The notes: generated from the letters alone by a model not told the origin. Counted from the first letter of the stretch, positions 12,985 through 28,887 are shown. The stretch is 32,000 bases of DNA from Limnohabitans sp. MMS-10A-178 (GCF_003063375.1 NZ_NERY01000004.1:137420-169419), one strand, 5' to 3'. A program made the numbers and translations.

Positions 12985-13069
12985 GCTGTCTCCTTCAATT
13001 TTTATCGTGAGTTTGAATGGCATTGTAATTTTGACCCATTCGGTGATGTCGTGTTGTGAGAATTTGGAA

Positions 13070-13936
13070 TCAGTGTGGTGCCTTAGAGCGCTCTGATCGA
13101 AGGATGAGCAAGCCCGAAATAACCAATAGAAAAATACCAGCCCAGGCAAGCGTGTTGGGCACTTCATCCCACACCACATAGCCAATGAGCAGTGCAAACA
13201 ACAAACCACTGTAGCGAAACGGTGCCACCAAACTCATTTCGCCAGAGCGCATGGCCACTATCAAAAAATAGTAGGCTACAGAAAGAAACACCGAGGCGCA
13301 GAACAGCAAAGCCAGCGAAGTGTTGTCAACGGGCACCCAGGTTTGAGTGAGTGTGATGCCGCCCGCGCCCAATGCCACTGACACGGCGGTGGACAAGCTA
13401 ATGAGAAGTGCGGGCACATGCAGGCCAATGCCCCGAGTGAGTGTGTCGCGTGTTGCATGAAGCAAAGTGGCCAGCACTGCAATCCAAGCGTACACATTGA
13501 AACCCTCAGAGCTGGGTTGAACCACCATGAGCACGCCAGTGAAGCCTAACAAAATGAGTCCGCCGCGAACAACAGTGACACGCTCTTTGAAGAAAAAGAT
13601 GGCAAACACAGTGATGAACAAAGGGGATGCCAAATTGATGGCCGTTGCATTGCCCAGTGGCAAGTGGAAAACCGCTGTGAGATAAGTGAGAGACGCTGCG
13701 GCATCGACAACACCGCGAAGCCACAACTTGGCGTTGAGCATAAGACGCCAGTTTTTGAGATGACCCATGGCTTGGGCCATGATGAGCACCAAAGTGGTGG
13801 CCATCAGGCCGCGTATGAAAATGAGCTGGTGGCCTGGTAATGTGGCGCTAACCTGCTTCACTAGCGCATCGTTGGCAATGAAAAGCGCCATGGCCAGACT
13901 CATGGCCAAAATACCGCGGCGATTGTCAGCGTCCAT
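13070..13936 (-). CDS. DMT-superfamily (EamA-like) transporter
   Basis: About 10 hydrophobic helices in two EamA-like halves. ATG at 13934-13936 (MDADNRRGILAMSLAMALF...). Confidence 0.75.
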   Translation of the reverse strand: MDADNRRGILAMSLAMALFIANDALVKQVSATLPGHQLIFIRGLMATTLVLIMAQAMGHLKNWRLMLNAKLWLRGVVDAAASLTYLTAVFHLPLGNATAINLASPLFITVFAIFFFKERVTVVRGGLILLGFTGVLMVVQPSSEGFNVYAWIAVLATLLHATRDTLTRGIGLHVPALLISLSTAVSVALGAGGITLTQTWVPVDNTSLALLFCASVFLSVAYYFLIVAMRSGEMSLVAPFRYSGLLFALLIGYVVWDEVPNTLAWAGIFLLVISGLLILRSERSKAPH

Positions 13937-13968
13937 GCAGACCTTCCTGGTGACCACGACAAGATCAT

Positions 13969-14000
13969 GAAAAAAGCCCCCTGTGCATGCACGGGGGGCT
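13969..14000 (-). terminator. intrinsic terminator downstream of the tRNA
   Basis: Minus strand: AGCCCCCCGTGCATGCACAGGGGGCT forms a hairpin with an ~11-bp stem, followed by TTTTTT. Confidence 0.75.
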
Positions 14001-14007
14001 CTAAGTT

Positions 14008-14084
14008 TGGTGGCTCTTCACGGATTCGAACCGCGGACCTGTGGATTATGATTCCATCGCTCTAACCGACTGAGCTAAAGAGCC
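14008..14084 (-). tRNA. tRNA with anticodon CAT (elongator Met, or Ile2 if C34 is lysidinylated)
   Basis: Reverse complement reads GGCTCTTTAGCTCAGTCGGTTAGAGCGATGGAATCATAATCCACAGGTCCGCGGTTCGAATCCGTGAAGAGCCACCA. It folds as a full cloverleaf with a 7-bp acceptor stem, a TTCGAAT T-loop and an encoded CCA. G1-C72 excludes an initiator tRNA. Confidence 0.93.
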
Positions 14085-14152
14085 TGAGCCAAAGATTGTA
14101 GCAAACGATTTGGTGAGATTGTTAGAACTTTTGAATAAAGTTTGGGACCTTG
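14046..14152. repeat. left copy of the 107-bp direct repeat (tRNA positions 1 to the end of the anticodon loop, plus ~68 bp upstream)
   Basis: Aligns with 25760-25866 at a constant offset of 11,714 bp. By manual alignment 101/107 are identical. Mismatches are at 14094, 14098, 14111 and 14115-14117, all outside the tRNA part. Confidence 0.9.
14095..14103 (-). promoter_or_regulatory. extended -10 promoter element (TGCTACAAT) for the intact tRNA
   Basis: The minus strand reads TGCTACAAT, ending 10 nt upstream of the mature tRNA 5' end, preceded by an AT-rich UP-like tract. No good -35 is present. Confidence 0.55.
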
Positions 14153-14186
14153 TCATTTAGATTGAAGCTCGCTTTTCTCGCGGCTA

Positions 14187-14256
14187 GGCAAAAACCGTTG
14201 TTCTAAGTTGAGTTCAGCGTGGGGATCGTGCTTGTGGGTGCGTTGAGAAAAAACGC
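14187..14256 (+). repeat. C0: diverged member of the C repeat family, contiguous with the tRNA-upstream repeat
   Basis: GGCAAAAACCGTTG..TTGAGTTCAGCG..CGTGCTTGTGGG aligns with C2 (GCGTAAAAATCGTTGAG..TTGAGTTCGGCG..CGTGCTCGTGGC). It ends in the hairpin GCGTT-N7-AACGC (14240-14256). Confidence 0.55.
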
Positions 14257-14428
14257 TTGACTATATCAACTTTATCAATCAAACTTTTACGAATGTTCAC
14301 TGACTTGTTAAACGCAATCGCTTTTGCTAATGCTTCTACGGCAGGTCAAGTCACGTCTACGCAACTAATGATGGAAATGTTATAGGCGGACTTAGTGAAC
14401 TAAAGGCAATACAAAATGCCACCCCACA

Positions 14429-14457
14429 AAGCCCGCTTACTCAGCGGGCTTTTTTGT
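14429..14457 (+). terminator. intrinsic terminator (AAGCCCGC-TTACTCA-GCGGGCTT + T-run)
   Basis: An 8-bp GC-rich stem followed by TTTTTTG. It lies inside the N-terminal extension of track ORF 14416-15009, which argues for the downstream GNAT start. Confidence 0.7.
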
Positions 14458-14487
14458 TGTCCAAAACTTACCCAAAGGATGATTGAT

Positions 14488-15009
14488 ATGAGTGATTTGA
14501 AGTTTTCTATTCGCAGAGCAGAACCTAATGATGCCGCAGGCTGCTGTGAATTGATGAGAAATGAAGATGTCTTCGCAGGATTGCTTCAGTTGCCATACCC
14601 AACAGAAACAGCTTGGCGTGAAAGGCTTTCAAGTAAATCAAATGAGGGCGACATTCTGTTGGTAGCTGTTGATAACGGTGAGGTTATTGGGCAGATAAGT
14701 TTGTTTGGAAATACACAAATGCGTAGAAGACACGCCGCAATGTTTGGACTCGCAGTGATTGGACACGCGCAGAACAAAGGTGTGGGCTCAGCATTGATGA
14801 AGGCAATGATTGACTACGCTGATAGGTGGACAACATTTCTACGCATTGAACTAACCGTCTATGCTGATAATGCGAATGCTATAGCTTTATATAAAAAGTT
14901 TGGTTTTGAGCACGAAGGCTTGCTACGCAAATATTCGCTGAGAAATGGACGCTTTGAAGATGTGGTTTCTATGGCTCGTTTCAATCCAAATCAGGCAATC
15001 GTTAGATGA
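14488..15009 (+). CDS. GNAT-family N-acetyltransferase
   Basis: AAGGA RBS 8 nt before ATG 14488. The acetyl-CoA-binding motif region QNKGVGSALMKAMIDYA and the fold pattern are typical of GNATs. Confidence 0.8.
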   Translation: MSDLKFSIRRAEPNDAAGCCELMRNEDVFAGLLQLPYPTETAWRERLSSKSNEGDILLVAVDNGEVIGQISLFGNTQMRRRHAAMFGLAVIGHAQNKGVGSALMKAMIDYADRWTTFLRIELTVYADNANAIALYKKFGFEHEGLLRKYSLRNGRFEDVVSMARFNPNQAIVR

Positions 15010-15010
15010 A

Positions 15011-15574
15011 ATGGCAAACTCTATGGAACTCATAACGCCATCTGTTGAAATTAGTGAAAGTTTTTTTGAGGCTTTGGAAAAAGGCTACGTGGATAAGTCG
15101 CGCGGAAAAATTACAACCGACAAAGACATAAACATCATCAAAAATGACTTCTCTGCTTTCGTGCGTACTTTTGATGATTTAGAAGCATCAGCAGATTTGA
15201 TTGCTTTGCCTAATGGGGACAAAGTTGAACGCTTACCAAGCATTACAAGATGGATTTGGGATGAAGGATTCTCAGGTTCAATCTCATTGCGATGGCAGAA
15301 AGGCACAACTGACTTGCCCTACTATTGTTTAGGGCACATAGGGTATGAAGTTGTGGAGTGGAAAAGAGATAAAGGGTTGGCAACTTTCGCATTGAAGTCA
15401 ATGTGTGAAACTGCTCAAAGTATGAAAATGCCGTTTGTAGAAGTCGTCACGGACATTGAAAATAAAAAGTCACAAAGAGTGATTGAGAAATCTAATGGGC
15501 GTTTGATTGAGACATTTACAAAACCAAAGCATTTGGATCAAACGCTTTCAAATCGTTATCGTATCTTTTTGTAA
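15011..15574 (+). CDS. second GNAT-like acetyltransferase (COG3981-like predicted acetyltransferase)
   Basis: ATG 15011 lies 1 nt after the upstream TGA. LRWQKGTTDLPYYCLGHIGYEVVEWKRDKGLATFAL resembles the COG3981 GNAT group (from memory). Its last ~10 codons run into repeat C1. Confidence 0.6.
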   Translation: MANSMELITPSVEISESFFEALEKGYVDKSRGKITTDKDINIIKNDFSAFVRTFDDLEASADLIALPNGDKVERLPSITRWIWDEGFSGSISLRWQKGTTDLPYYCLGHIGYEVVEWKRDKGLATFALKSMCETAQSMKMPFVEVVTDIENKKSQRVIEKSNGRLIETFTKPKHLDQTLSNRYRIFL

Positions 15575-15715
15575 AGTTTGGGGTCCTGAAGGGTGCAACC
15601 CATTTTTACCCACTGCGCACAGATTGTTGAGTCAGGTTTGGTTTCGGCGGGAGAACCGTGTTGCTAGGTTGAACTGGTTGGCAAGGGTTGTTTTACACGA
15701 CAGTTGGTGGTGTGG
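15545..15715 (+). repeat. C1: member of the C repeat family
   Basis: Contains TAAAGTTTGGGGTCC, GTTGAGTCAGGTTTG, CGG-GAGAA-CCG and the terminal hairpin GTTGT-TTTAC-ACGAC followed by AGTTGG. Confidence 0.8.
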
Positions 15716-15774
15716 TTGATGGTAGAAATGAAAAAGCTAGACGAATGCTTGGATTTCTTTATAAATTCAGTTAG

Positions 15775-16968
15775 TTAATCAGTTAAAGACTCCACATCAA
15801 TTTGCCGCCCACTAGCTGCAAACACTTCCTTACCTGCCTTGTTAAGCAACCGAATATTTAACAATCTGACCGGAACAGCATATCTAATATCGGTCACATC
15901 AATCGGACGGTCGAAGGTAGGCTTTGTTTTATCTTCGTTCTTGATCAAGAATGGGTTGTCTTTGGCAAGTGGGTAACGAGGATCGAAAACGACTTCCATA
16001 ACAATCTTTCCCGTTTCAAGAATTTCTTTGGCATCGCCACGATTAAACGGAGTCGAGAATCGTTGCCTTGAGTCTGCACCGTAATCTTTTGTAGCCTGAC
16101 TCAATATCGCAAAACCGTATCTAGTTATACCCATTTCAACTACCTCAATAGAAGCCCCAAGTCTATTTTTAGCCGTATAGGTTTTTAACTTGTGATCCAT
16201 TGATTCAATTTGAATGAATGAGTTATGAAGCCATTTCAAACCTTCTTTTCCACCAGAGTTAATCCAAACTAAATCACGGCTTATGGAGGGAAGAGAAATC
16301 CTAATTACCTCTGAATCTGGGTCAAAATAAACTAACTTCTCTTTTTTATTTTGAGGGTTATCTATGTCAAAGCTAATCTTGTAGCCTCTTCCCTTTTTGA
16401 ATTGGTCTGAATATGCTTGTTTTCTTAGCTCGTATTCGGCTTTTGACTCAAAGTCACCCTTGCTTAGCTTTTCCCCTTGCATAGCTTTGATATCAGCCAA
16501 AAATGAATTTTTGTCTCCAAAAACTACCGGTATTGCTTGCTCGGCTTTTTTTTCAGGCGCTGTAATCACGGGAGAAGGCTGTACAACAGAGGAAGGGGTG
16601 CTACTTTCAGAAGGTACTTTACTTAGCACTAACCCATCGTTTTTACTGCTGCTAGCAAGTTCTGTAGAAGTAACACTGAGTGGAATAATGCGAACTTTGG
16701 AGCGAGCATCACATCTACCAATCTGTCGATCACGAAGAATCTTTTCAATTTGTTGTTCTGTTTTTGGTTTTAAAAGTGGGTGGTTGTATGCGCTGCATAG
16801 ATCGGCATCGCTTTGTGAAGACAAAAGAACAACTCTGTCGTAGTCGATCATTTCTTCGATATTTTTTGACTGTATTGCTCCGCACGATGCAAGAAATACA
16901 GAAATAAAGCCCACCCCCAGCCTTTTTATCGACTGCTTAATGTTTTCTTTATTCAAACCAGTAGCCAT
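15775..16968 (-). CDS. hypothetical lipoprotein
   Basis: Strong RBS AAGGAGA then ATG 16968. Lipobox VFLASC follows a basic N-terminus, then a Ser/Pro-rich linker. No domain was recognised. Confidence 0.7.
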   Translation of the reverse strand: MATGLNKENIKQSIKRLGVGFISVFLASCGAIQSKNIEEMIDYDRVVLLSSQSDADLCSAYNHPLLKPKTEQQIEKILRDRQIGRCDARSKVRIIPLSVTSTELASSSKNDGLVLSKVPSESSTPSSVVQPSPVITAPEKKAEQAIPVVFGDKNSFLADIKAMQGEKLSKGDFESKAEYELRKQAYSDQFKKGRGYKISFDIDNPQNKKEKLVYFDPDSEVIRISLPSISRDLVWINSGGKEGLKWLHNSFIQIESMDHKLKTYTAKNRLGASIEVVEMGITRYGFAILSQATKDYGADSRQRFSTPFNRGDAKEILETGKIVMEVVFDPRYPLAKDNPFLIKNEDKTKPTFDRPIDVTDIRYAVPVRLLNIRLLNKAGKEVFAASGRQIDVESLTD

Positions 16969-17333
16969 ATTTGTCTCCTTTACGCAATGGTTTTACAGCA
17001 TTTCTCTGAACTGTCTTTCGCTGTATTTCAATGCCGTGAACTTAAATTCCACATTATTCAAAACACAAAATATCATCTAACAAATATATTAAATGTAGAG
17101 GATTGAATGGTACCTTCGTAAAGAAGGTAACGTGTTGTTATCCAAATAACTAGAAACTGCTTTCCTCTGGCTCGCCTATGGCAATTAAAACTGAGCCAAG
17201 TTGCATCCAATTTTGAGACACGCTAATTGCACACATCTCTTAAATTCTAAGCAAAATAATCACACAGAGTTGACCATCAACGGAACAATTTTGGACAAAG
17301 GCGCAAAGAGTGCCTTTGTTCAATTCGGAACAT

Positions 17334-17774
17334 TTACTGAGCAAAGCCATCCCTGAGCTTGTTGGCGGCGGCATCAATCTGTGTGTCCAGTTCCCCGTTG
17401 AGCACGGCAGTTTTGATCAGCTCCAGTGTGGGCACCAAGTCTTTCTCACTGCCAACTTCCACTGCCACTTTGCCCTTGGCTAGTTCCAGCACCTTGGTGC
17501 CATAGCGTACTGATAAAGCAAGTTTGCCTGTGTCGGTGACAAACCACCAAGGCTTTACTCGCTTGGGCGTTTCTACTTGACGGCGTATGCCAGTATCCTG
17601 TTCCACGATACTTCGAAACTTGACAGGGGCAAATGTAGTTCCACCTGCTTGCGCTCGGGCTAACTCGCATTGCTCCCATAAACGAAGAACTAACTTGTTA
17701 CGACGAAGTTGGATGGATGGGACACTAGTGGGTTTAACAGCTGCGCTGAGTTTGAGTGTTGATAGAGTTGCCAT
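17334..17774 (-). CDS. hypothetical 146-aa protein (recalls a conserved ~140-aa island-borne family, possibly DUF6641; from memory only)
   Basis: RBS AGGAA then ATG 17774. Visibly higher GC than the flanking island genes. A hairpin lies just downstream (17295-17319). Confidence 0.65.
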   Translation of the reverse strand: MATLSTLKLSAAVKPTSVPSIQLRRNKLVLRLWEQCELARAQAGGTTFAPVKFRSIVEQDTGIRRQVETPKRVKPWWFVTDTGKLALSVRYGTKVLELAKGKVAVEVGSEKDLVPTLELIKTAVLNGELDTQIDAAANKLRDGFAQ

Positions 17775-17917
17775 ATACTTTTCCTTTCAATGTTGATAAA
17801 GCACAGACAATTTTGTGATCTGCTGGCGCTGGTGAGCAACCAATATCCGTCCATTTTGACTGGTTGATATTGCCTAAGTAGCACGAGAAGCTATAAGTCC
17901 TAGGCACCTTTCTTAAC

Positions 17918-18085
17918 TTAAATTGACTGAAGTTTTGCCATCGACTTCTGAATTCCAGCCAATCGCTTTTGCTGCTTCGTCACCTTAAGTCTGTTAGCTG
18001 CTTGATCTGCTCGTTGCTTTAGTGCGTCAGCCTGAAGCTCTTCGGGTGATTTGGGTTTTGTTGAGGTAATTTCACTTAAGCGCAT
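17918..18085 (-). CDS. possible 55-aa basic coiled-coil protein
   Basis: ATG 18085 lies 9 nt after the TGA of the upstream 120-aa gene. Sequence MRLSEITSTKPKSPEELQADALKQRADQAANRLKVTKQQKRLAGIQKSMAKLQSI. No clear SD, and it is below the track's length cutoff. Confidence 0.35.
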   Translation of the reverse strand: MRLSEITSTKPKSPEELQADALKQRADQAANRLKVTKQQKRLAGIQKSMAKLQSI

Positions 18086-18094
18086 ATTTGACTA

Positions 18095-18457
18095 TCAGCA
18101 AATAACAATTGGTGGTGCTGTGTAATTGTTGTCGCTTTCCATATAGACTTTTGCGATCGAGCGAATGACAAGTTTTCTTACTGCTTCATTTTGCGAGTCT
18201 ATTCTTTGAACTCTTTTTACGATTTCTTGAGCAATCATTGATTGAAGTTCTGTAATCTTTTTATTTGGACTTGTTGAATTTTTATGCTCAAGTATTTCAG
18301 ATAGAAAAAGTAGGCTGTTTGTTGGGATGTCTAAGTTTTGTGAACTGACACTTCCATAATAGCCTTCACTTTTCCCTAAATATCTACTGAATTTTCTGGC
18401 TGTTACTTCAGGTAAAGCCATTGATGTCATTTCGAATAGTTGTTTTGTAAAGCTCAT
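18095..18457 (-). CDS. hypothetical 120-aa protein
   Basis: Strong RBS AGGAGA then ATG 18457. No domain recognised with confidence. Confidence 0.65.
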   Translation of the reverse strand: MSFTKQLFEMTSMALPEVTARKFSRYLGKSEGYYGSVSSQNLDIPTNSLLFLSEILEHKNSTSPNKKITELQSMIAQEIVKRVQRIDSQNEAVRKLVIRSIAKVYMESDNNYTAPPIVIC

Positions 18458-18570
18458 AGTTGTCTCCTGTATAAAGTATTTATATGCCTAGCTAAAGCTA
18501 GTCGCGATACAGATTTCTCTTCGAGCAAATCCATATCGCATTTATTTCTTTCAAACTGAAATGATCGAAT

Positions 18571-18594
18571 TGAAGTGAAGTGAAGTGAAGTGAA
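18571..18594. repeat. pentanucleotide microsatellite (TGAAG) x4.8
   Basis: Read directly: TGAAGTGAAGTGAAGTGAAGTGAA, about 115 bp upstream of the 18457 start codon. Confidence 0.9.
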
Positions 18595-19030
18595 ATAACA
18601 TTTAGATGTCATTCACTAGGAAGCATAGATGCCACGCTAAAAAAGCGCGGCGACATTCACTGAGGTATTCATAGCTACATATACACAACTTGATTGAACA
18701 AGAAAGGCAGGTTTTGCGATCTCCTTTTATGTGCGTGTCCTTACGCAAGCAGCAGAATTCCTATGTAGTCAGATGTTTCTGTGCCTTGTGGGTTACTCTT
18801 TCGAGTGTGGCTTCCCACTCACTTTTGATTGAGCCGTATGTGGCTCTTTCACAACTATTAAGACATCACAAATGTTACATCCTGAGACGGAGTCATTTAA
18901 GCATCCTGCTGATCTTTATGGCAGCAGGTTAGTGCGATGAATCAGCGCAACAAGCTACGCCTTCTTTACCGTCTCACATCAGAACGGGTTTAGCAGCTCA
19001 ATTCAATCGGCGAGCAACCTTCTTCTTGTT

Positions 19031-19049
19031 CGTATAACTTATTTATACG
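19031..19049. repeat. perfect 7-5-7 palindrome CGTATAA-CTTAT-TTATACG
   Basis: Read directly. It lies in the 840-bp ORF-free region, 250 bp upstream of the small recombinase gene. Confidence 0.85.
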
Positions 19050-19299
19050 GACATTCTGTTTTATCGGGGCTTAGCAGCTATTTTTTGGAAATTCGAAGAG
19101 TCGAGTAGCTGGATTGGCACAAAAACGCTTGTAGGGCATTTAAAGCTGTCTATCAAAACCACGCACCAAAGAAAATTAGCATTTTCTTTACCAGTGTTGA
19201 TTTCATTGAAGAATTTATGCCCTTAAATTCGGTTGTCCTTTTTCACAAAAGAAAACAAACTTGTGTACGACTTTTTATTTGTTTCGAGGAATTGAAAAA

Positions 19300-19863
19300 A
19301 TGGCACAAGCAAAAACTTTTACTAAAGAGGAATTTGAAGAGCTTCTCGACTTCGTATCAAAGCGCAGCTACGCGATGCGAAATCGAATGATGATTTTGAT
19401 CAGCTTTTGGTCTGGAATGCGAGTTGGCGAAATTGCCAGCTTGCGAATTGAGGATGTTGTAGATACATCAGGAAAAGTAAGACGCGAAATTCGATTGGAT
19501 GCTTCACAAACAAAGGGAAATCACGCTAGAACTGTTTTTTTCCCTGATAAATTGAGAGCGGAACTTCAAATCTATGTTGATGTTCGGGCAGTTAAGGATC
19601 GAAAGCAGCCATTCTTTATGACTGCTGGTGGCAAATCTTTTTCTGCGAATGTGATGACGCAGCATTTCTTTTGGCTGTATCGAAAAGCAGGCTTTGAGAC
19701 TGGAAGCCACAGCGGCAGACGTAGTTTTATTACCAATCTTGCTTCCAAAGGTATTGGCGTAAGAGTCTTGGCAAGTTTGGCGGGACACAAATCAATTAGT
19801 GTGACGCAAAAATATATTGACGTGAATGATGATATGAAACGGAACGCAATTGAAATGATCTAA
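19300..19863 (+). CDS. small (187-aa) tyrosine recombinase, catalytic domain only
   Basis: GAGGA RBS 9 nt before ATG 19300. Catalytic signature residues are present: R in GMRVGE, H-x-x-R in SHSGRRSF, H in LAGHKS, Y in TQKYID. There is no room for an N-terminal core-binding domain. Confidence 0.8.
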   Translation: MAQAKTFTKEEFEELLDFVSKRSYAMRNRMMILISFWSGMRVGEIASLRIEDVVDTSGKVRREIRLDASQTKGNHARTVFFPDKLRAELQIYVDVRAVKDRKQPFFMTAGGKSFSANVMTQHFFWLYRKAGFETGSHSGRRSFITNLASKGIGVRVLASLAGHKSISVTQKYIDVNDDMKRNAIEMI

Positions 19864-19875
19864 CAATTGCTTTAA

Positions 19876-20934
19876 TTAAGCATCTCGAATAATGACAATT
19901 CTTTCCCGCGGTTGGATGATTAAATTGTTTTGCCTTGTTCTCTCGGGCTCGTCGTAGTAGATACCTTTTACACCTGCTAATTTATTCACACTTAGCTCTG
20001 AAATTAGGTTCAGGTTCCACCAACTACTCTCAAGCTCTTTGTGCTGATCTAGTTGTCTTTGTGTAAATCGTTGTCCATTTAAGGCAACTTCTTCGTAGCT
20101 TGGGAAGATGCCTCTTTCGGCATTGGCAGTAAGTAGTCCCGCTTTTTGAATATTTCGGCTGACGGCTACTCTCATTCGGTTGTGCCTTGCTCTAACTTCA
20201 TCTGGTGAACCACTCATCGATTCGTTTTTGGGGCTTACTTTGAGTAATTTTCCAATTCGATAGAGATCCGCTTTCGACGTTTCTCTCAAAGCCTCAGGTT
20301 TATTTTGCTTAAGCCACTTTGGCTTTTCAATAAGTTCTCGATGAAGGGCGTATACCTCGTGAACCTTTTGGAGAATCGGTGTTCCAAATTGAACAGGTTG
20401 GATTTTGAACTCAGCAGTAGTCAGTTCAATTCGCCTATTTAATCTAATACTTTCGTATTCTTTTAATAGTTTTCCAATATTTTTTTGAATAGTCCGAGTG
20501 CTTAGTTTCAATGGTATTTCAACCCAAATCTTGTCCTCTGCGGGTAATTGTCTTTCTCGATCAGAAGGACGTCTGGGCACTTCTTTTACTTTTGGGAATT
20601 TTTCTTCTTCGCTAAAGATTCTGTAACCACGTTCTACCCACCATTCATCAAAGTTGGTTTTGTATACATCACCGAACCGTCTGTAAACCCTGCGAAGCTT
20701 CTCATCTTGAGTAGCTATGTTGTGACCTTGTGTTGTTTGACAAACCAGCCAGTAAGCCTTGCTGAGACGAAGGCATTCCCACCACCAGCGTCGAACACTA
20801 TTTCTCACATCTACGAGTGACTCCTCCGGTTTTTTGTACCGAAGTTTTCGAAGTCCTTTTAGAACGTGCTCTTGGTTATCAGGTGGTGAAAAATCTTCAT
20901 TCATTATTAGTCTGCCATATGCGCGAAACAACAT
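19876..20934 (-). CDS. hypothetical 352-aa basic protein
   Basis: Long ORF with island-like composition. The N-terminal RRWWWECLRLSKAYW faintly recalls the W-x-W-E-F-L-R-R motif of regulator-like domains on integrative elements (from memory, weak). The start is ATG 20934 or 20904. Confidence 0.6.
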   Translation of the reverse strand: MLFRAYGRLIMNEDFSPPDNQEHVLKGLRKLRYKKPEESLVDVRNSVRRWWWECLRLSKAYWLVCQTTQGHNIATQDEKLRRVYRRFGDVYKTNFDEWWVERGYRIFSEEEKFPKVKEVPRRPSDRERQLPAEDKIWVEIPLKLSTRTIQKNIGKLLKEYESIRLNRRIELTTAEFKIQPVQFGTPILQKVHEVYALHRELIEKPKWLKQNKPEALRETSKADLYRIGKLLKVSPKNESMSGSPDEVRARHNRMRVAVSRNIQKAGLLTANAERGIFPSYEEVALNGQRFTQRQLDQHKELESSWWNLNLISELSVNKLAGVKGIYYDEPERTRQNNLIIQPRERIVIIRDA

Positions 20935-21070
20935 TTAACGGCTAAGCAGGCAAAGTGTAACTGTTAGCGATGGAAACAGAAAGCAAAAGCGATTTGGGAC
21001 TGTTGTTAATGGCAACTTGAGCAGGTTGTTCAGGTTGTCTTTTTAACTTGGTTACATAAAGGAATACCAA

Positions 21071-22081
21071 ATGACAGCAGTTATTGAGAAAACTACATCT
21101 TCTGTAAACACTACAGCTACTTTCAGTACAACTTTGCCAAATGGTCAAAAAATGACTATCAATAGTGGAGTTGAAGAATTGGAGTTTGTAAGCAATCAAT
21201 TTAAAGATTTGCCGATTGAAGAGCGATTGGTTGCCGCCGAAAAAGTTCGGGATGAAATGATAGAAAACACAGACAACGAAGATAAGGAGCAATTGGATAA
21301 AGAAATCAGCGAAATGACATCTTCGTACGAGCAGCCAAAGGAACAGTATTCGGTTCCTGCGAAATTGGAATACACGATTGACGAAGATGAGGAAGAAGAA
21401 AAGATAGAGCCTAAGACGCGTCAAGCATATGTCTGGTATTTCAAAGCGCATCAGCGTCGTACAGCAATCGCTTCTTTACAAATGTGTCGCGTTGTCTACG
21501 AAGCTAGTAAGTCATTAGCAGATCTAAACTTCGACGAGTTTTGTAAAAACATTGGTTACGAACCAAAAAGCAGCACTATCCGGAAATTCACAGTTGTAGG
21601 AAAGGTGTACCCACGATTGATCAAATATGCTGATCAATTGCCAGCAGCGTGGACAAGCATCTACGCTTTGACACAAATGCCAGCCGATGAATTTGAACGT
21701 TGTATTGAAAGTGGGTACCGTTTGTGTGATCTTTCTGGTGGCGAAATTGATCAGTTAGTTAAGAAAACTCGACAGATCAATAACTTGATGTCGCCATTCA
21801 AGTTAGATAAGAAGCAAAACGCCATTTGCGTAGCAAAAGTTTATTTCACACGCACGATGGATGACGTTGATCTGCGATTGCTTCAGAAAGCATTTGATGA
21901 AGTTGCCGCTAGATTGCCAGTCAAGCTGAGTATTGAAACGCAAGTTCTCGAAATGTTCAAAGAGCGTGCCAATCAGCGTTATCAAAAGCTAAAGCAAGAA
22001 GCTCCTGAAACAGGTATCAAACCTGAAGCTTGGGACTATGGTGTTGCTGCTAATTCTGTCTATAACAAAGACGCAGCATAA
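21071..22081 (+). CDS. hypothetical 336-aa protein with an acidic N-terminal half
   Basis: AAGGA RBS 8 nt before ATG 21071. The acidic low-complexity N-terminus is followed by a C-terminal region (FCKNIGYEPKSSTIRKFTVVGKVYPRL...LPAAWTSIYALTQMP) that resembles phage/plasmid helix-rich DNA-binding proteins (weak). Confidence 0.6.
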   Translation: MTAVIEKTTSSVNTTATFSTTLPNGQKMTINSGVEELEFVSNQFKDLPIEERLVAAEKVRDEMIENTDNEDKEQLDKEISEMTSSYEQPKEQYSVPAKLEYTIDEDEEEEKIEPKTRQAYVWYFKAHQRRTAIASLQMCRVVYEASKSLADLNFDEFCKNIGYEPKSSTIRKFTVVGKVYPRLIKYADQLPAAWTSIYALTQMPADEFERCIESGYRLCDLSGGEIDQLVKKTRQINNLMSPFKLDKKQNAICVAKVYFTRTMDDVDLRLLQKAFDEVAARLPVKLSIETQVLEMFKERANQRYQKLKQEAPETGIKPEAWDYGVAANSVYNKDAA

Positions 22082-22115
22082 GTTTGTTCCAAATAGAACA
22101 AATCATCAACTAAAC

Positions 22116-22135
22116 GGGAGGGGGAAACCCCTCCC
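22116..22135 (+). terminator. GC-rich hairpin GGGAGGGG-GAAA-CCCCTCCC downstream of the 336-aa gene
   Basis: A perfect 8-bp stem. No strong T-run follows on either strand, so its role as a terminator is tentative. Confidence 0.4.
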
Positions 22136-22162
22136 AATTAAGTCAAATAAACAGGAGCACTT

Positions 22163-22321
22163 ATGACCAAGAATACATTCACCAAAGACGTACGCGAGTT
22201 CTATTTTTCAAACTACAGCCATTACAGTGAGGACTTCTCAATTGATGAGGATTTGATTTATTCGCCAGAAGAATTGAAAGATCTTCGCAAATCAATGATG
22301 CTGGAATACTGGATTGATTAA
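22163..22321 (+). CDS. possible 52-aa acidic protein
   Basis: AGGAG RBS 6-7 nt before ATG 22163. Sequence MTKNTFTKDVREFYFSNYSHYSEDFSIDEDLIYSPEELKDLRKSMMLEYWID. Its stop overlaps the stop of the convergent XRE gene. Confidence 0.45.
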   Translation: MTKNTFTKDVREFYFSNYSHYSEDFSIDEDLIYSPEELKDLRKSMMLEYWID

Positions 22322-22737
22322 GCAATCAACAATTCATCAAGCTCTGGGACTTTAAATTCAGCTGCTAATTCTCGTAAAAGTCGACGTTGAACTTTACTAA
22401 GCGCTAGATACTGCTTGATGAATTTTTGATCTGCGTTTGAGACTTCAAATTCACCACGACCCAAATCAGCTATTAGAGTTTTTTCACGATCTATTCCGAA
22501 ACGCAATTGTTCAGGACTTGTATCCAACAGTTTGGCAAGGAGTACTAACTTTTCTTGAGTTGGCAAACTTTTTCCAAGTAACCAATTTCGTGCTGTATGA
22601 GGAGTAATTAGTCTGCCCTCATACTTTGAGTTGAATAAGTTGGCAATGACAGTAGGGCTTTGCTTGAACCCTTTCGAGTCAATAGCTATGGCAAGTCGCT
22701 CTGCGAATTTTTGGTTTTCAATTTGAGTAGGTAGCAA
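22318..22737 (-). CDS. XRE-family helix-turn-helix transcriptional regulator
   Basis: N-terminal HTH (FAERLAIAIDSKGFKQSPTVIANLF...TARNWLLGKSLPTQEKLVLLAKLLDTSPEQL). The only possible start is TTG at 22737. Confidence 0.7.
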   Translation of the reverse strand: MLPTQIENQKFAERLAIAIDSKGFKQSPTVIANLFNSKYEGRLITPHTARNWLLGKSLPTQEKLVLLAKLLDTSPEQLRFGIDREKTLIADLGRGEFEVSNADQKFIKQYLALSKVQRRLLRELAAEFKVPELDELLIA

Positions 22738-22920
22738 GACAGTCCAATCAACAATGGACAGATCTTAGATTGAATTTACAAAAAACGCGATAAAGATTTA
22801 AAAATGTAAGTGCTTGTATCAATTAGTTAGGTTGTTGTCGACATCACCACTAAAGTTGTCATCAATTACAGCTGTTGATAAATCAATCTGAAACTTTAAG
22901 CCCCGAGTCTTCAAACGGTG

Positions 22921-23178
22921 TCAAAACCATCCGCAATAAACCTCTACTCGCTTAATACCATTAGCTGCTAGAGGCAACTTGACCGCATTTGAAAGATGAA
23001 AAGTGCCATTGAATACGGCACCCCTGTATGTGGCATTTTTCACTTTTATGACGCGAATATTTTGAAGATGGACTGTGCCCTTAACTTTGGCAAGTTTGCT
23101 TAAGTCTGGGCATTTCGTTTTGTCCCAGATTGGTCGCTCGAAATAGTGGTTCATTTTGTATCCAGATAAATGTTCCAA
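22921..23178 (-). CDS. hypothetical small protein (77-85 aa)
   Basis: ORF only. The start is TTG 23178 or ATG 23154. No RBS and no recognisable domain. Confidence 0.4.
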   Translation of the reverse strand: MEHLSGYKMNHYFERPIWDKTKCPDLSKLAKVKGTVHLQNIRVIKVKNATYRGAVFNGTFHLSNAVKLPLAANGIKRVEVYCGWF

Positions 23179-23378
23179 ATATCTTAGAACTTGTTTTTAT
23201 CTGTGTCTAGAGTGAAGTCAGTTTGCTTTGTAAGTGCCGTTAAGTTTTGACATAAAAAAACAGCGTGAGTTGTTAGCCCACCCTGTTCTTGCTATATCAA
23301 GTTGAAATTACTTTGCTTTTTAATCAGCCAGTTGCTTCTCTAGTGCTGCAATTTCTTCAAGCCTTTGTTGTGGTGTTG

Positions 23379-24185
23379 TCATTTCATTTGATCCCTATTA
23401 ATTTCTTGATTTTTTTTCTTAATGGCTCTGTCAGATGCTTCTATACTTTCCGACGCCTTGGTCCAGGACGCTCTCACAGCAGCGTTAATGACAAAGCCCA
23501 TACAGTAACGATTTACATCAGAGTCTTTTGGGATAAATACTCCCTTAAGAACACTACTGATGAAACGCTCTTGAGATGGTTCGCAAGTCACTCTCGATAC
23601 ACTTGGTCCTTCGAACTGAAACGCCCAAATCGTTCCGGCAACATCATAGAAATCCATTGCCGTGGATAAACTTTTTGAAAACTCCGGCATTTCATCTGAA
23701 CTTTCGCGAAGGTAAGATTGAACTTCAAATTTAGGATCAGAAATTACACCAGAATAGTCTCTATATGAAACACCTGTCCCCACTCGCGTTTGAACTCGTC
23801 TCACTACTTGCAATATCTTTTGTGCTTTTTCAATCTTTTTTCTTTCACTTGCTATCCGCTTCTCTTCCGCTGCAATCTTTTCTGCTTCTATTTTTGCTAA
23901 TGCCTCTTTTTCTTTTCTTTCACTTGCTAGCTTCTTCTCTTCTGCTGCAATCTTTTCTGCTTCTATTCTTGCTACTTCCTCTTTTTGTTTTCTATCATTC
24001 TCTTCCTGCATCATCTTTTTAGTTTGTCTATCAAAACAATCTGCTTTTTTAGCAGCATTTTTTATTGCTTGGCACTCTTGCAAACCTGTCAATGATGAAG
24101 CATAAGTTGAACTTACTACAGACAACAAAAGCAATCCAATCAATGCACCTTTGATCGCTACTTTTTCCACAGGATTTCCTTTCAT
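23379..24185 (-). CDS. secreted coiled-coil protein with an internal 25-aa tandem duplication
   Basis: Signal peptide MKGNPVEKVAIKGALIGLLLLSVVSSTYA from ATG 24185. Repeats ARIEAEKIAAEEKKLASERK / AKIEAEKIAAEEKRIASERK. The C-terminal ~130 aa are non-repetitive. Confidence 0.65.
   Translation of the reverse strand: MKGNPVEKVAIKGALIGLLLLSVVSSTYASSLTGLQECQAIKNAAKKADCFDRQTKKMMQEENDRKQKEEVARIEAEKIAAEEKKLASERKEKEALAKIEAEKIAAEEKRIASERKKIEKAQKILQVVRRVQTRVGTGVSYRDYSGVISDPKFEVQSYLRESSDEMPEFSKSLSTAMDFYDVAGTIWAFQFEGPSVSRVTCEPSQERFISSVLKGVFIPKDSDVNRYCMGFVINAAVRASWTKASESIEASDRAIKKKNQEINRDQMK
23840..23975. repeat. 75-bp in-frame tandem duplication inside the coiled-coil gene
   Basis: CTTTCACTTGCTA recurs at 23843 and 23918 with near-identical following sequence. 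Confidence 0.8.
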
Positions 24186-24228
24186 TTTTTCGCAATCATA
24201 CACATCTCGAAAATAGAATCAACAAACA

Positions 24229-25584
24229 TCAAGCCAACTTATCAGCAGCCATCGTTGCCGTCAATTTAGAGTAATGCCGCTCCAACATAGTCACAGAAGT
24301 TCCCATTTGCCGCGCAAGTGTGTGAATGTCAGTGCCAGCTAATAGTTCCTGTGTAGCATAGGTATGGCGTAAGCTGTAAAGCGTTCTGTCTGTGCCTGCC
24401 TGTCCCTTTACCAAGTCCAAGTCTTCCAACAAGCGCCTAAATATCTTGTTCATTTCAAAAGGTTTGCGTCCATCTTTGAACCTGAACAATTTGACTGGCA
24501 TTCTCAGCGCCAGCAAATCGTCAAAATTCAAGTCAGCGGTGTCAGTGTGAGTTGCCTTTAGTCGCTCAAGCACAGGCAGGCATTCGTGTTTGGCAATAAG
24601 CCACCTTGCGCCTGTTTTACCAGACACCCATATGCGTAAGTAGCGCACATCCTTTTCTACATACCACTCAATGTGCCGCCACTCCAAGTTCATTGACTCA
24701 GTGCCTTGTCGCATTCCTGTCAAACACAAAATATCCACCAAGTCTCGCAGCATCAGCCGCATCTCGCCTGTGTAGCCTTCCACGCCCACATACCAATTCT
24801 TCAGGAGCTGTTGAATTCGTGCTACTTCGTCGTTGGTGAAAGCAGGGCGAGCTTTTCCTTTCTCACCACGCACATTGAGTTTTGGCACTGGCACCTTATC
24901 GCTGATCCATCCTTGCTCCACTGCGGTTTTAGTGATGCGTGTGAATGCTGTAGAAAAAGTGAGTAGGGTAGAGACTTTGGGAGGACGTCTCAGTTGTGAA
25001 TTTCTCCACACCTCAAATTCAGCGATGTGCTTGTTGGTGATGCTGGTCAAATACATCTGCCCAAAGAACGGTATCAAATAAGTTTCAATCACAGCGATGT
25101 ATGCGGTGTAGATTTTCTTGCCTGTGCCTGCTGCGATGTCTCGCCTCATCTCAGCGACACAGCACTTTGCCATTTCATCAAATCGTTTTACCAGTGGGGT
25201 AAATCCCAAACGCTCTCTGTATCGTGCTTCGTCATATCTGTCGCAGGCAATCTGCTTGGCGTCATCGAGATTTCTGCGTCTGGTGCTAAAGCGTATCCAC
25301 TTGCCTGTGTAGATGCGAAACCTTGCTTGCCAGTAGTTGCTGCGAGCTACTTTGAACAGGACAACTTCGCTGTCTCGCAAGTGGACGAGCCTACCTTCAG
25401 CAGCAGCCAATTCGTCGATGGAATCACGCTCGAGCAGCGTTTCTACACGCTTGTGCTGCTTGACTATGCTCTCAGTTTTAACAGCGTACTTAACGCTGTT
25501 TGATGCGTTTAACAGCACAGTCGTGCTGTGGGCGCCGTAGTAATTTTTAAATGAAAAAATCTCAAGTGCGTCACGCTGTTTCAT
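24229..25584 (-). CDS. int: tyrosine-type site-specific integrase of the island
   Basis: 451 aa. C-terminal catalytic region LCLTGMRQGT...YSLRHTYATQELLAGTDIHTLARQMGTSVTMLERHYSKL. It sits 176 bp from the truncated tRNA repeat. Confidence 0.88.
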   Translation of the reverse strand: MKQRDALEIFSFKNYYGAHSTTVLLNASNSVKYAVKTESIVKQHKRVETLLERDSIDELAAAEGRLVHLRDSEVVLFKVARSNYWQARFRIYTGKWIRFSTRRRNLDDAKQIACDRYDEARYRERLGFTPLVKRFDEMAKCCVAEMRRDIAAGTGKKIYTAYIAVIETYLIPFFGQMYLTSITNKHIAEFEVWRNSQLRRPPKVSTLLTFSTAFTRITKTAVEQGWISDKVPVPKLNVRGEKGKARPAFTNDEVARIQQLLKNWYVGVEGYTGEMRLMLRDLVDILCLTGMRQGTESMNLEWRHIEWYVEKDVRYLRIWVSGKTGARWLIAKHECLPVLERLKATHTDTADLNFDDLLALRMPVKLFRFKDGRKPFEMNKIFRRLLEDLDLVKGQAGTDRTLYSLRHTYATQELLAGTDIHTLARQMGTSVTMLERHYSKLTATMAADKLA

Positions 25585-25680
25585 TCACTAACTTTATTGT
25601 CGAACTGCTAAAAGGACAACCGAGCGATAAAGTTTTTCCAGCGTAAAAACCGTGAAAAAGTAAACACGAGTGCGCTTTAG

Positions 25681-25717
25681 AAAACAAAAAAGCCCAAGCT
25701 GGACTAGCATTGGGCTT
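25681..25717 (-). terminator. intrinsic terminator between the orphan tRNA promoter/5' half and int
   Basis: Minus strand: AAGCCCAA-(12-nt loop that extends the stem)-TTGGGCTT followed by TTTTTGTTTT. Confidence 0.7.
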
Positions 25718-25760
25718 GTTATGTGAACTTAACGGTATTGGCACCGTCGTCACTGTTTTT

Positions 25761-25798
25761 TATGATTCCATCGCTCTAACCGACTGAGCTAAAGAGCC
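25761..25798 (-). pseudogene. truncated tRNA(CAT): 5' half only (position 1 to the anticodon loop)
   Basis: 38 nt identical to 14047-14084. The sequence left of 25760 has no similarity to the tRNA 3' half. Confidence 0.9.
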
Positions 25799-25808
25799 TG
25801 AGCCAAAA

Positions 25809-25817
25809 ATTATAGCA
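25809..25817 (-). promoter_or_regulatory. extended -10 element TGCTATAAT in front of the truncated tRNA
   Basis: Consensus TGnTATAAT on the minus strand, at the position homologous to 14095-14103. Confidence 0.55.
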
Positions 25818-25920
25818 AACGATTGGGTTCAATTGTTAGAACTTTTGAATAAAGTTTGGGACCTTGGATAGATGTAGCTAAGTTAGCGAGCTAATGTCAG
25901 CCTAGGGTATAACTTTACAA

Positions 25921-27504
25921 ATGATGACTCATTCAATGAAAAACTTAAGGCTGGCGATGTTGTTTTCGCTTGCATATGTATGCGTTGACTGGCTTAGTTT
26001 CATTCATCCAATGGGGCAACTCAACATAACACCTTGGAACCCGCCTGCCGCTGTTCAAGTACTTTTCTTAACTTGGGCGGGATTGCTGTGGGCACCGTGG
26101 GTGTTTATCACAATCGGATTTGCTGATTGGTTAATCCGCGATTCAGTTATCTTTTCTTCATCTGTTTTGATTGGAAATGCGATCTTGATCGGATGCTACG
26201 CAATTATTTCGTATGTATTGATCAAGCTAATGAAAGGTGTTCCAAGACTTCAAAACCGAGTTGAAGTTTTTAAGCTAAGTTTGGTTAGCGTGATTGGTGC
26301 GGCGATAACTGCAATCTTATATGTAGGTTTGCAAACTCTAATTGGCAAATTGGGAAAAGATGATTTCTTAGAGGCAAGTTATCGTTTTTTTGTAGGAGAT
26401 TTATTGGGACTGATAGTTGTACTGCCGTTGGCGCTATTGTTTATAAACCCGTTCAGGCGCGAACAATTCAAACAAATGTTTTTAAGTTATTCGTTTTGGC
26501 TGTTGTTCTTGGGACTTCTAATTTGTGAGTACCTAGTCTTTTCATTGCCAATTGAAATGCAAATGAAGTACTTTTTTCCATTGTTCTTTGTGGTCGGTTT
26601 AATTGGTGCGGCTCACTCTTTGCCTGGTTCTACTTTTGCTGCCGCAGTCGTGCAAGTCCCTTTAGTGATCAGTTTTACGCAAGTGGGTGTGCTGCCCAGT
26701 GATTTGATTGATATGCAAATTGTGATGTTCACGCTGTCAATGACGGGTTTGCTCATTGGAACTGTTGTTGACGAACGATTAAACACGCAAGAAAAGTTGA
26801 AGGAAACTTTGCAACTGGTGGCTGCAGGCGAATTAGCTGGCTCTCTCGCTCACGAATTGCATCAGCCTATGAGTGCGATCAATACCTATGCGGAATCGGC
26901 TTTGCTACTGTCCTCAATTGAGAGCAAAGAAGTCAATCAAAAAAATAAAGACCGATTACGTCAAACACTAGATCAAATCATAAAGGAATCAATTCGTGCA
27001 TCCGAGATTGTCCGAGGATTGAGAAGTTTCTTCATAGGTGGCACATCAAATATCAAAGAAGCGGAAGTTGAGCGGTTGGTGATAGATACAGTTTCGCAGT
27101 TAGAAAATTATGCGCAAAAATTAAGTGTGCAGATCAAGGTTGAAAAGCTCAATGAACCAGTTTCGGTGATGGTTGACATTACTCAAGTGAAAACAGCATT
27201 AGGTAACTTGATCAAAAATGCTATAGAGTCTGCCAACTCAAATGGTGTCGTTGAAGTTATGTTTACATTAGATAAACAACAACGCATTGAAATTAGCATT
27301 TTTGATACTGGTAAAACTCTTGATACTTATGAAAGCGAAATTATTTTTAAGCCCTTCTATAGTGATAAGAAAGACGGCTTAGGTTTGGGTTTGTCCATTA
27401 GTAAATCATTGATTGAAAACAATGATGGATCAATTACATACAGATCAAATCCCAGAAAATGTTTTGTTGTTTCATTACCTACAGGAAACAAAATAGATGT
27501 CTGA
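25921..27504 (+). CDS. sensor histidine kinase with a MASE1-like membrane N-terminal domain
   Basis: About 280 aa of multi-pass membrane domain (IHPMGQLNITPWNPPAAVQV, MASE1-like). H-box LAHELHQPMSAINTYAE, N-box NLIKNAIES, G-box DGLGLGLSISK. Confidence 0.8.
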   Translation: MMTHSMKNLRLAMLFSLAYVCVDWLSFIHPMGQLNITPWNPPAAVQVLFLTWAGLLWAPWVFITIGFADWLIRDSVIFSSSVLIGNAILIGCYAIISYVLIKLMKGVPRLQNRVEVFKLSLVSVIGAAITAILYVGLQTLIGKLGKDDFLEASYRFFVGDLLGLIVVLPLALLFINPFRREQFKQMFLSYSFWLLFLGLLICEYLVFSLPIEMQMKYFFPLFFVVGLIGAAHSLPGSTFAAAVVQVPLVISFTQVGVLPSDLIDMQIVMFTLSMTGLLIGTVVDERLNTQEKLKETLQLVAAGELAGSLAHELHQPMSAINTYAESALLLSSIESKEVNQKNKDRLRQTLDQIIKESIRASEIVRGLRSFFIGGTSNIKEAEVERLVIDTVSQLENYAQKLSVQIKVEKLNEPVSVMVDITQVKTALGNLIKNAIESANSNGVVEVMFTLDKQQRIEISIFDTGKTLDTYESEIIFKPFYSDKKDGLGLGLSISKSLIENNDGSITYRSNPRKCFVVSLPTGNKIDV

Positions 27505-28084
27505 AAACAAACTGATTTGTATTGTTGATGATGATGCATCTGTGCGTGATTCACTGAGCTTGGTGCTTGGATTGAAAGGCTACGACTGCAGGACTTATGA
27601 AAGTGCAGAGTCTTTCCTTTCTAGTTTGCCCAATCGTCCCGCTTGTATCATTTTGGATTTGAAGATGACTGGGATGAGTGGACTTGAATTGCAAAACCGC
27701 TTGCTAAGTCAAAAAGTGCCAGTGCAAATCATTTTTTTAACTGCGTTTGCAGATGTACAAGTGATGCGCGAAGCATTTTTAGGCAATGCAGTGGACTTCT
27801 TAGAAAAGCCATTTGTACTTGAACAGCTTCTGGAATCTATCAATCGCTCATTACACAACTTATCAGCAACTACCGAAACAATTCAACATAATCAAAAATT
27901 GAGTTTGCTGACACCTCGGGAAAAAGAAGTCTTTGATGTTCTTGCCCTAGGAAAAAGCCACCGAGAGATAGGGGAGTTGTTAAAAATTAGCCCAAGAACT
28001 GTTGAGGTTCATAAGGGTAGAGTACTGGAGAAACTTGGTATCAAGACATTAGCTGACATCTTGCGAATTGCCATCAAAACTTGA
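27497..28084 (+). CDS. FixJ/LuxR-family response regulator
   Basis: Receiver domain (IVDDDASVRDSL...ILDLKMTGMSG) plus a LuxR HTH (LTPREKEVFDVLALGKSHREIGELLKISPRTVEVHKGRVLEKLG). It overlaps the kinase gene by 8 nt. Confidence 0.88.
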   Translation: MSENKLICIVDDDASVRDSLSLVLGLKGYDCRTYESAESFLSSLPNRPACIILDLKMTGMSGLELQNRLLSQKVPVQIIFLTAFADVQVMREAFLGNAVDFLEKPFVLEQLLESINRSLHNLSATTETIQHNQKLSLLTPREKEVFDVLALGKSHREIGELLKISPRTVEVHKGRVLEKLGIKTLADILRIAIKT

Positions 28085-28171
28085 TTTGATATAAGGGCAG
28101 CCCGTACGTCATTATCGGATGTACAAACTTGATGAGGTTTTCTATATTGGTGCAACTATTGAAAGTTGCAA

Positions 28172-28822: not shown

Positions 28823-28887
28823 TTGGGGTTCGCTTGATACGTCAGGAAAAAGTCAGAAAATAACTTAAAACCTTTTTAAAGGTGTAT

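Follow-up and report, generated by a model that had tools for sequence, protein, structure and literature searches.

Which half of a tRNA gene does an integrating element bring with it, and which half does it leave to the chromosome? In the usual tRNA islands, the attachment site of the element (attP) contains the part of the tRNA between the crossover and the 3′ end; the integrase gene (int) adjoins an intact tRNA gene, and the far end of the island has a 3′ fragment. A 32,000-nt stretch of the Limnohabitans sp. MMS-10A-178 genome (hereafter the window) raises this question anew, as an 11.7-kb island lies here inside a tRNA-Met(CAT) gene, with boundaries that can be drawn anywhere within a repeat, for example at 14046-25759. 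We consider it highly probable that the attP of this island carries a promoter and the 5′ half of the tRNA gene, that the island sits in the anticodon loop, and that the working tRNA is a chimera of element and chromosome. Comparison loci and contigs are labelled below with L-numbers (L001 and so on).

The anatomy of the locus is directly visible in the window, and the features on which the argument turns are as follows:

13970-14002, minus strand: chromosomal terminator, a hairpin with a T-run downstream of the tRNA gene, just before the EamA gene (read from the sequence; flank conserved in relatives).
14008-14084, minus strand: intact tRNA-Met(CAT) gene (ARAGORN; Rfam tRNA, 66.9 bits).
14046-14152, minus strand: left repeat copy of 107 nt (attR side), made of the tRNA 5′ half (14046-14084) and the promoter block (14085-14152).
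14095-14103, minus strand: extended −10 element TGCTACAAT of the predicted promoter of the intact tRNA gene, ending 10 nt before tRNA position 1.
24229-25584, minus strand: integrase, a divergent tyrosine recombinase of 451 aa (PHROG_1, AlphaFold2 model, Foldseek).
25760-25866, minus strand: right repeat copy (attL side), made of the truncated tRNA 5′ half (25760-25798) and the displaced promoter block (25799-25866).

ARAGORN calls a single tRNA gene across the window, at the position and on the strand given in the preliminary description of this DNA, and Rfam agrees. That description had also held that 14046-14152 recurs at 25760-25866 and that the duplicated block is the 5′ half with about 68 bp of upstream DNA; re-alignment by hand gives 101 of 107 identical positions, and the block comprises tRNA positions 1-38 plus the 68-nt promoter block. 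All six mismatches fall upstream of tRNA position 1, as it had stated (repeat positions 35-37, 41, 54 and 58 in tRNA orientation), and all repeat copies here are identical over tRNA positions 1 to 38. A repeat search ranks this pair, as 14039-14152 and 25753-25866, first among the direct repeats of the whole window, and its 48-nt core occurs exactly twice against 0.00 expected (100 shuffles). The repeat edge falls exactly past the 3′ side of the anticodon loop (...GGAATCATAA); beyond it the left copy runs on into the tRNA 3′ half and the right copy into unrelated DNA. The extended −10 elements ascribed to the two copies are present, TGCTACAAT at 14095-14103 and TGCTATAAT at 25809-25817; a simple sigma-70 promoter scan calls neither of them, for want of a −35 match. 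The position of the extended −10 element is conserved in all relatives, and its distance is fixed in every far-end copy. The reported turn towards AT-rich composition at the tRNA gene is likewise real (G+C content drops there from ~0.52 to ~0.43), and, in addition to what was then described, G+C content stays low (0.34-0.45) past 25866 to the window end at 32000. The integrase gene was said to abut the truncated copy, and indeed the ATG of the open reading frame (ORF) 24229-25584 (minus strand) lies 175 nt from it. Every particular of the earlier observation was thereby reproduced. As to the identity of the intact gene, it has a CAT anticodon and A at position 32 and is labelled Met by ARAGORN; it may encode an elongator tRNA-Met or a tRNA-Ile2 (lysidine).

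The protein encoded beside the truncated copy (Int) matches PHROG_1 (integrase) with E=1.4e-30 over residues 32-448, and Pfam PF00589 weakly (21.7 bits, under the cutoff of 27.1). Its AlphaFold2 model has a mean predicted local distance difference test score (pLDDT) of 78.6, and the top 50 PDB matches found with Foldseek are all tyrosine recombinases (E down to 3e-9), led by XerH, full-length lambda Int, IntI4, XerA, Tn1549 Int and Cre. As modelled, Int combines the catalytic-domain fold with a core-binding domain, which places it in the tyrosine recombinase/phage integrase superfamily. Residues R292, K323, R406, H407, H437 and Y438 are invariant among 11 Int homologues and fit the R..K..H/Y-x-x-R..H/W..Y pattern, and the C-terminal LRHTYAT...HY segment aligns to box II of IntI4; two canonical His positions appear to be substituted. 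The N-terminus of the model forms a four-strand sheet (residues 67-100) followed by a helix (106-125), and full-length lambda Int aligns with the model over ~400 columns, the predicted N-terminal domain resembling a lambda-like arm-binding domain.

A survey of related integrases for attP structure, suggested in the preliminary description, supports a 5′-type attachment site. More than 3550 homologues of Int exist; a metagenome scan with Int yielded 79 loci in freshwater samples, others came from look-ups of more distant homologues, and the comparison data are mostly metagenome contigs. Sixty-one loci include the Int N-terminus, and in 45 of them the upstream sequence reaches 215 nt or more. 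Of these 45, 41, comprising every Int at least 63% identical to that of the window, have a truncated tRNA-Met 5′ half that ends in ...ATCATAA 175-177 nt before the int ATG. Among the 41 is L063, flanked by core genes, whose host differs in the acceptor stem of the tRNA and has an unrelated promoter of its own. A sister group, which accounts for three of the four exceptions (L123, L125 and L126; Int identity 57-59%), shows the 5′-half junction with another tRNA: a truncated tRNA-Phe 5′ half with the edge ...TTGAAAA, followed by an arm homologous to that of the Met group. The identity block of attP and the chromosomal site (attB) therefore has its edge at the anticodon loop both in Met (41 loci and the window) and in Phe (three loci). 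Both the invariance of this junction and its distribution across the group are direct observations. Complete Met islands, end to end on a single contig, occur in L070 (6 kb, encoding Int, a small recombinase and DUF6641, followed by the tRNA gene and EamA) and in L114 (6.6 kb).

The cleanest evidence that the element appears to supply both the promoter and the 5′ half is the pair L126 and L131. Both ends of a Phe island are present in L126, where the truncated copy stands behind a native ntrC-like gene and its promoter, and 6.3 kb downstream comes the intact tRNA-Phe gene, which has other DNA in front of it, including a TGCTACAAT of its own. This far-end DNA is conserved in L131, whose tRNA 3′ flank (host) differs; here the promoter at the far end is plainly borne by the element. 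Among the other loci, truncated copies differ in promoter spacer type and upstream flank while their P′ arms (the attP arm between the junction and int) are identical and their Ints nearly so, which implies that the recombination joint falls in the interval from the promoter spacer to the P′ arm. Given also that homology stops at the loop edge in both Met and Phe, the crossover can be placed at or near the anticodon loop, the classical symmetric sublocation; from sequence we infer that it lies within the 7-nt loop.

A second junction type was seen in L061 (14203-14222) and L102 (1779-1796), where the block and tRNA nucleotides 1-18 (to the D loop) are followed by C(A/G)A(G/T)CTCACGGTGTAAAACGATACATCC. 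No recombinase is encoded in the 2.5 kb past this junction in L102. It could represent another element that replaces the 5′ end, or a chimera.

On both sides of the proposed crossover, the following features are candidates for functional parts of attP; RE denotes a repeat of ~110-175 nt that is treated further below:

25585-25759, minus strand: P′ arm of attP (attL side), conserved in both the Met- and the Phe-targeting group (alignment).
25732-25747, minus strand: invariant palindrome ACGGT-N6-ACCGT, 13 nt past the junction, a candidate protein-binding site.
25681-25717, minus strand (the strand of tRNA and int): predicted intrinsic terminator between the orphaned promoter with its 5′ half and int (terminator scan).
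14135-14143, minus strand: AAACTTTAT motif in the distal promoter block, a candidate arm-type site for Int that may also belong to an UP-like A/T tract.
14154-14262, minus strand: RE1, the proposed P arm of attP, adjoining the promoter block upstream (nhmmer profile, E=2e-27).

Directly past the junction the P′ arm reads nnAACAG, and further conserved blocks extend up to int. The palindrome is conserved in sequence and shows no covariation; in the terminator stem, three pairs carry compensatory changes across 11 elements. The motif AAACTTTAT occurs three times in 32 kb against 0.52 expected, each time on the minus strand: in both promoter blocks and in the P′ arm. If it serves as an arm-type site, RE and the promoter block would be the P arm, and RE does precede the promoter block at many intact and truncated copies among the relatives. 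The conserved terminator also implies a short chimeric RNA of ~110 nt, comprising the tRNA 5′ half and the arm hairpin, which would come from attL and from attP alike.

The chromosomal side was delimited by scanning species-representative genomes with the neighbouring EamA transporter, which gave 60 loci, the closest being Limnohabitans and metagenome-assembled genomes of Comamonadaceae (78-94% amino-acid identity). In ~20 Limnohabitans-like genomes EamA directly follows the tRNA gene, and the 3′ flank and terminator are the same; this synteny identifies the tRNA 3′ half and all window DNA left of the tRNA gene as conserved core chromosome. The 68-nt promoter block stands upstream of the tRNA gene in all ~20 relatives, with a spacer (~−33 to −12) of several types, and the DNA past CAAGGTC, the distal block edge, differs widely among them. 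At the intact tRNA gene of the closest relative, L001, the block is 100% identical to the right-hand, int-proximal block of the window, an identity that is no more than suggestive. Spacer type was also considered as a marker of 'native' versus 'element' promoters and rejected, as a module encoding a histidine kinase and a response regulator (HK/RR) is joined to three spacer types in three genomes.

An island-free relative had been expected to carry a single tRNA gene with an upstream region of the right-hand type. In L005, the HK/RR module that abuts the truncated copy in the window (83% identity), RE, the block, the intact tRNA gene and EamA follow one another with no int island between them, and we take this locus to be the unoccupied state for the island of the window. 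Its match to the predicted empty site is approximate, as the window has no RE beside its right-hand block.

Taken together, these data suggest the following mechanism. Int, a lambda-like tyrosine recombinase, would recombine attP with the anticodon loop of the tRNA(CAT) gene. From the crossover towards 5′, attP would consist of the anticodon loop, tRNA positions 1-38, a complete extended −10 promoter and the upstream arm (RE). After integration, the order would be older DNA, the previous promoter, its 5′ half, the P′ arm with terminator, int, cargo, RE, the island promoter, its 5′ half, the chromosomal 3′ half, the terminator and EamA. In the resulting chimeric tRNA gene, 14008-14045 (3′ half) would be chromosomal and 14046-14084 (5′ half) island-supplied, and, since both 5′ half and promoter come from the island, we propose that the working tRNA is transcribed from island DNA. 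The displaced promoter would fire into the terminator placed before int. Each newcomer would enter the intact gene and shift earlier islands, with the promoters they delivered, upstream (tandem accretion). Activity of the promoters and of the terminator, as well as present-day mobility, are likewise inferred.

The attP structure and chimeric tRNA that had been proposed for this element are supported by the invariant int-proximal junction, by the contiguity of the 3′ half with EamA and by the element-borne promoter of L126. The accompanying idea that the native promoter was orphaned beside int fares less well: the promoter is orphaned, and 'native' is probably wrong. In L075, a core 87% identical to window 17297-23207 is followed by the same HK/RR module, RE, the block and an intact tRNA gene, so that HK/RR with the block forms the far end of an island of the same family; with the AT-rich, RE-bearing right flank of the window, this indicates that the orphaned promoter probably derives from an earlier island. 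It would probably be better described as 'previously resident'. A related junction occurs in L113, where the far end of an L114-type island is joined through the block and 5′ half to a P′ arm and int, as in attP; it could be a tandem pair, an excised circle or an assembly path through the repeat.

Several observations count against a 5′-restoring island. Neither an excised circle nor a precisely repaired attB was observed among the loci compared, and none of the relatives shows a promoter at this tRNA gene that is clearly native and free of islands, L005 too having RE beside the block. Solo RE units without the −10 element and the 5′ half are not predicted by simple accretion, and many of the metagenome contigs used for comparison break at this repeat. 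Furthermore, two loci whose Ints belong to the 5′-type group depart from the layout: in L064 an intact tRNA-Met gene stands 1.1 kb upstream of int, and in L145 the tRNA sequence upstream of int is a 3′ fragment. In L064 (Hydrogenophaga defluvii), five RE-type hairpins GTGTCGGGTTACACGAC surround Int within 9078-15388 and an insertion sequence lies beside int; this context is atypical and may be rearranged.

The same repeat pair could in principle arise with the crossover elsewhere. If it lay at the distal block edge (near 14152/25866), the island would stand upstream of an untouched native tRNA gene and the int-side copy would be element-borne homology or a decoy. Homology between genomes does break sharply at CAAGGTC in many relatives, distal block sequences recur in solo RE units, and the mismatches by themselves cannot place the crossover. 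However, this placement leaves unexplained why the int-proximal copy stops at the anticodon-loop edge, a classical crossover sublocation, in both Met and Phe. The block beside int varies among elements with identical P′ arms, as recipient DNA should, the truncated Phe copy of L126 keeps its native upstream gene, and the right-hand block is identical to that at the intact tRNA gene of L001; we regard a distal-edge crossover as quite improbable.

It is very improbable, in turn, that the block belongs to a dispersed promoter/RE repeat family duplicated by homologous recombination or module shuffling in a hypervariable region, with the integrase a mere neighbour. RE together with the distal 33 nt of the block is found four times in the window and 61 times in 38 sources, in one orientation and bounding variable modules, and HK/RR and similar modules sit at different positions in different loci, all of which such a family would explain. 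Yet the full block with the 5′ half was encountered only at the intact tRNA gene, at the loop edge 175-177 nt from int (41 loci), or cut in the D loop (two loci), and a family specific to Limnohabitans is excluded by the tRNA-Phe loci, which show this geometry with another promoter. An assembly artefact, with contigs mis-joined at the repeated tRNA/promoter sequence, has next to negligible probability, even though many metagenome contigs end in or beside the repeat and the junctions of L113 and L061 are possibly chimeric: the window spans both copies, which differ at six positions and are separated by 11.6 kb of unique DNA, and this architecture was recovered independently in assemblies of several projects, L070 and L114 among them having both ends on a single contig.

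With integration of a 5′-restoring island as the preferred explanation, the origin of the RE repeats deserves separate consideration. Each RE begins with a hairpin (GTGTCGTnTTACACGACAC), and every copy is in the tRNA orientation. There are four copies in the window and 3-5 each in L006, L013 and L018, spaced 0.4-2.7 kb apart, and they bound variable modules (GNATs, HK/RR, LysE) in arrays upstream of the tRNA gene. Solo units retain the distal block to ...AAAAGTTCT, often followed by nnGAATCTAAGCATTGAT, and lack the −10 element and the tRNA half; deletion or decay, or a second site-specific process, are possible origins. Two other interpretations were tried and rejected: a structured RNA or attC-like hairpin, as RNAalifold found no consensus structure in 32 copies, and transposons with terminal inverted repeats, as TCTAAGCATTGAT occurs in a single orientation and hence is part of the repeat unit.

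The arrays resemble integron cassette arrays in that single-orientation modules of 0.4-2.7 kb are parted by a repeat of ~110-175 nt. One could imagine that the modules, rather than being decayed islands, stem from a second, site-specific form of cassette capture anchored where the tRNA promoter lies, in which the P-arm repeat acts in an attC-like way and small modules lacking int are mobilised in trans by the island Int or by the conserved small recombinase. We rate this as rather unlikely; if true, the system would be tRNA-anchored and integron-like in function, and unrelated to integrons. Unlike integron integrases, Int scores 18 bits against the model TIGR02249 (cutoff 265); no R″/R′ core sites, GTTRRRY-type boundaries or conserved attC-like fold were seen in the RE copies; and RE is homologous to the promoter-proximal arm of the tRNA gene.

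The remaining features of the island cargo (14263-24228; Pfam, NCBIfam and PHROG scans), which also holds ORFs without assigned function, and of the flank to its right (Pfam; RE matches) are these:

14416-15574, plus strand: two GNAT acetyltransferases.
15587-15722: solo repeat RE2, in the cargo.
15775-16968, minus strand: ORF.
17334-17774, minus strand: DUF6641.
18095-18457, minus strand: DUF6626-like.
19261-19863, plus strand: small tyrosine recombinase, catalytic domain only.
22318-22737, minus strand: helix-turn-helix regulator.
23379-24203, minus strand: ORF of 274 aa adjoining int.
25867-32000: AT-rich right flank, G+C content 0.34-0.45.
25921-27504, plus strand: histidine kinase, in the right flank.
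27497-28084, plus strand: LuxR-type response regulator, in the right flank.
28704-28837: solo repeat RE3, in the right flank.
29432-29538: solo repeat RE4, in the right flank.
30390-31418, plus strand: ADP-ribosylglycohydrolase, in the right flank.

The island core (17295-23207) is collinear in L075, L079, L082 and L018 at 79-87% identity, and the right flank (25867-32000) is probably older island material, judging by its composition and repeats. IMG/VR scans with the Int protein and the junction pattern returned zero matches, which leaves a phage or satellite nature without support, and PADLOC found no defence genes. The 274-aa ORF matches no family; a 75-nt tandem repeat (two copies, 89% identity) lies inside it at 23838-23987.

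The small recombinase, of 200 aa and thus of FimB/E size, is kept across islands of the family, including those of classical layout described below. A segment of ~0.7 kb beside it (window 18338-19053) is inverted relative to the gene in L002 and L089, and a palindrome TGTTCGTATAActtatTTATACGGACA lies nearby at 19027-19053. This segment may be an invertible switch. A role of the protein as a cassette recombinase was considered and set aside, its FimB/E size and the orientation of the neighbouring segment, which differs between loci, pointing to a local inversion switch.

The window opens within a transfer-messenger RNA (tmRNA) gene, of which the 5′ part occupies 1-295 (minus strand; Rfam, 100.7 bits); the same tmRNA gene lies ~9.5 kb from tRNA-Met in L024. 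The Rfam scan of the window returned the tRNA and the tmRNA and nothing else.

More distant relatives show how the 5′-type arrangement may have arisen. Ints at 49-55% identity are found in the classical layout, with an intact tRNA-Lys, tRNA-Cys or tRNA-Phe gene and then int within 135-165 nt, and a neighbour-joining tree sets the 5′-type Ints apart from them. Some of these classical-layout islands carry the same accessory genes (small recombinase, DUF6641). As the 5′-type group is sister to classical-layout relatives with which it has accessory genes in common, restoration polarity seems to have switched within one island family. Restoration polarity (3′ versus 5′) can, it appears, flip within an integrase family without a change in where int lies relative to the crossover, and the group offers a natural system for asking what holds most elements to the 3′ solution.

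For the host, the consequence would be that a possibly essential tRNA gene appears to be transcribed from a promoter on mobile DNA in island-bearing cells, with the previous promoter parked before a terminator; as a promoter arrives with each island, every landing would hand control of a core component of translation to a new element. In practical terms, these islands will be misplaced by finders and annotators looking for 3′ fragments, and in abundant freshwater bacteria the repeated promoter and half-tRNA interrupts metagenome assembly at this locus.

That attP carries a replacement segment for the target gene is a general rule (PMC10111431), and recombination with the 5′-distal part of tRNA genes is known, although 'considerably less frequent', the bacterial example cited being Zhao & Williams 2002 (PMC6563490). 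Islander accepts a 5′ fragment upstream of the tRNA gene (tDNA) and recognises tandem arrays (PMC4383910). The locus described here fits the 'reversed', 5′-restoring configuration of that scheme: 25760-25798, 24229-25584 and 14008-14084 are all on the minus strand, the displaced 5′ fragment lies upstream and the integrase lies inside. The arrangement is therefore already known but rare, and is not new in principle.

Like the classical anticodon-loop integrases in the sublocation scheme of Williams 2002, the present group has int beside a tRNA-derived sequence in the same orientation and a limit of homology at the loop edge. It also shares with classical tRNA integrases a replacement segment that keeps the target gene functional and the formation of tandem arrays at one tDNA. 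Unlike in the classical case, the identity block runs from the loop towards 5′ through the promoter (107 nt). Unlike in 3′-restoring islands, the int-proximal copy is a truncated 5′ half and the intact gene lies 11.5 kb away at the int-distal end, an arrangement seen equally in L070, L114 and L126. Elements of another domain of life resemble these islands in duplicating the 5′ part of a tRNA gene, and there the integrases are of different types. As summarised in PMC6563490, the case of Zhao & Williams 2002 is alike in using the 5′-distal rather than the 3′ part of a tRNA gene; what we describe goes beyond that citation in comprising a whole integrase group with two tRNA targets and dozens of instances in freshwater Comamonadaceae. 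What our analysis contributes to the known arrangement is a large and coherent group of integrases that use it with two tRNA targets and whose sisters are relatives of classical layout, an attP with what appears to be a complete promoter, a conserved predicted terminator that would shield int, and probable tandem accretion in an abundant freshwater genus.

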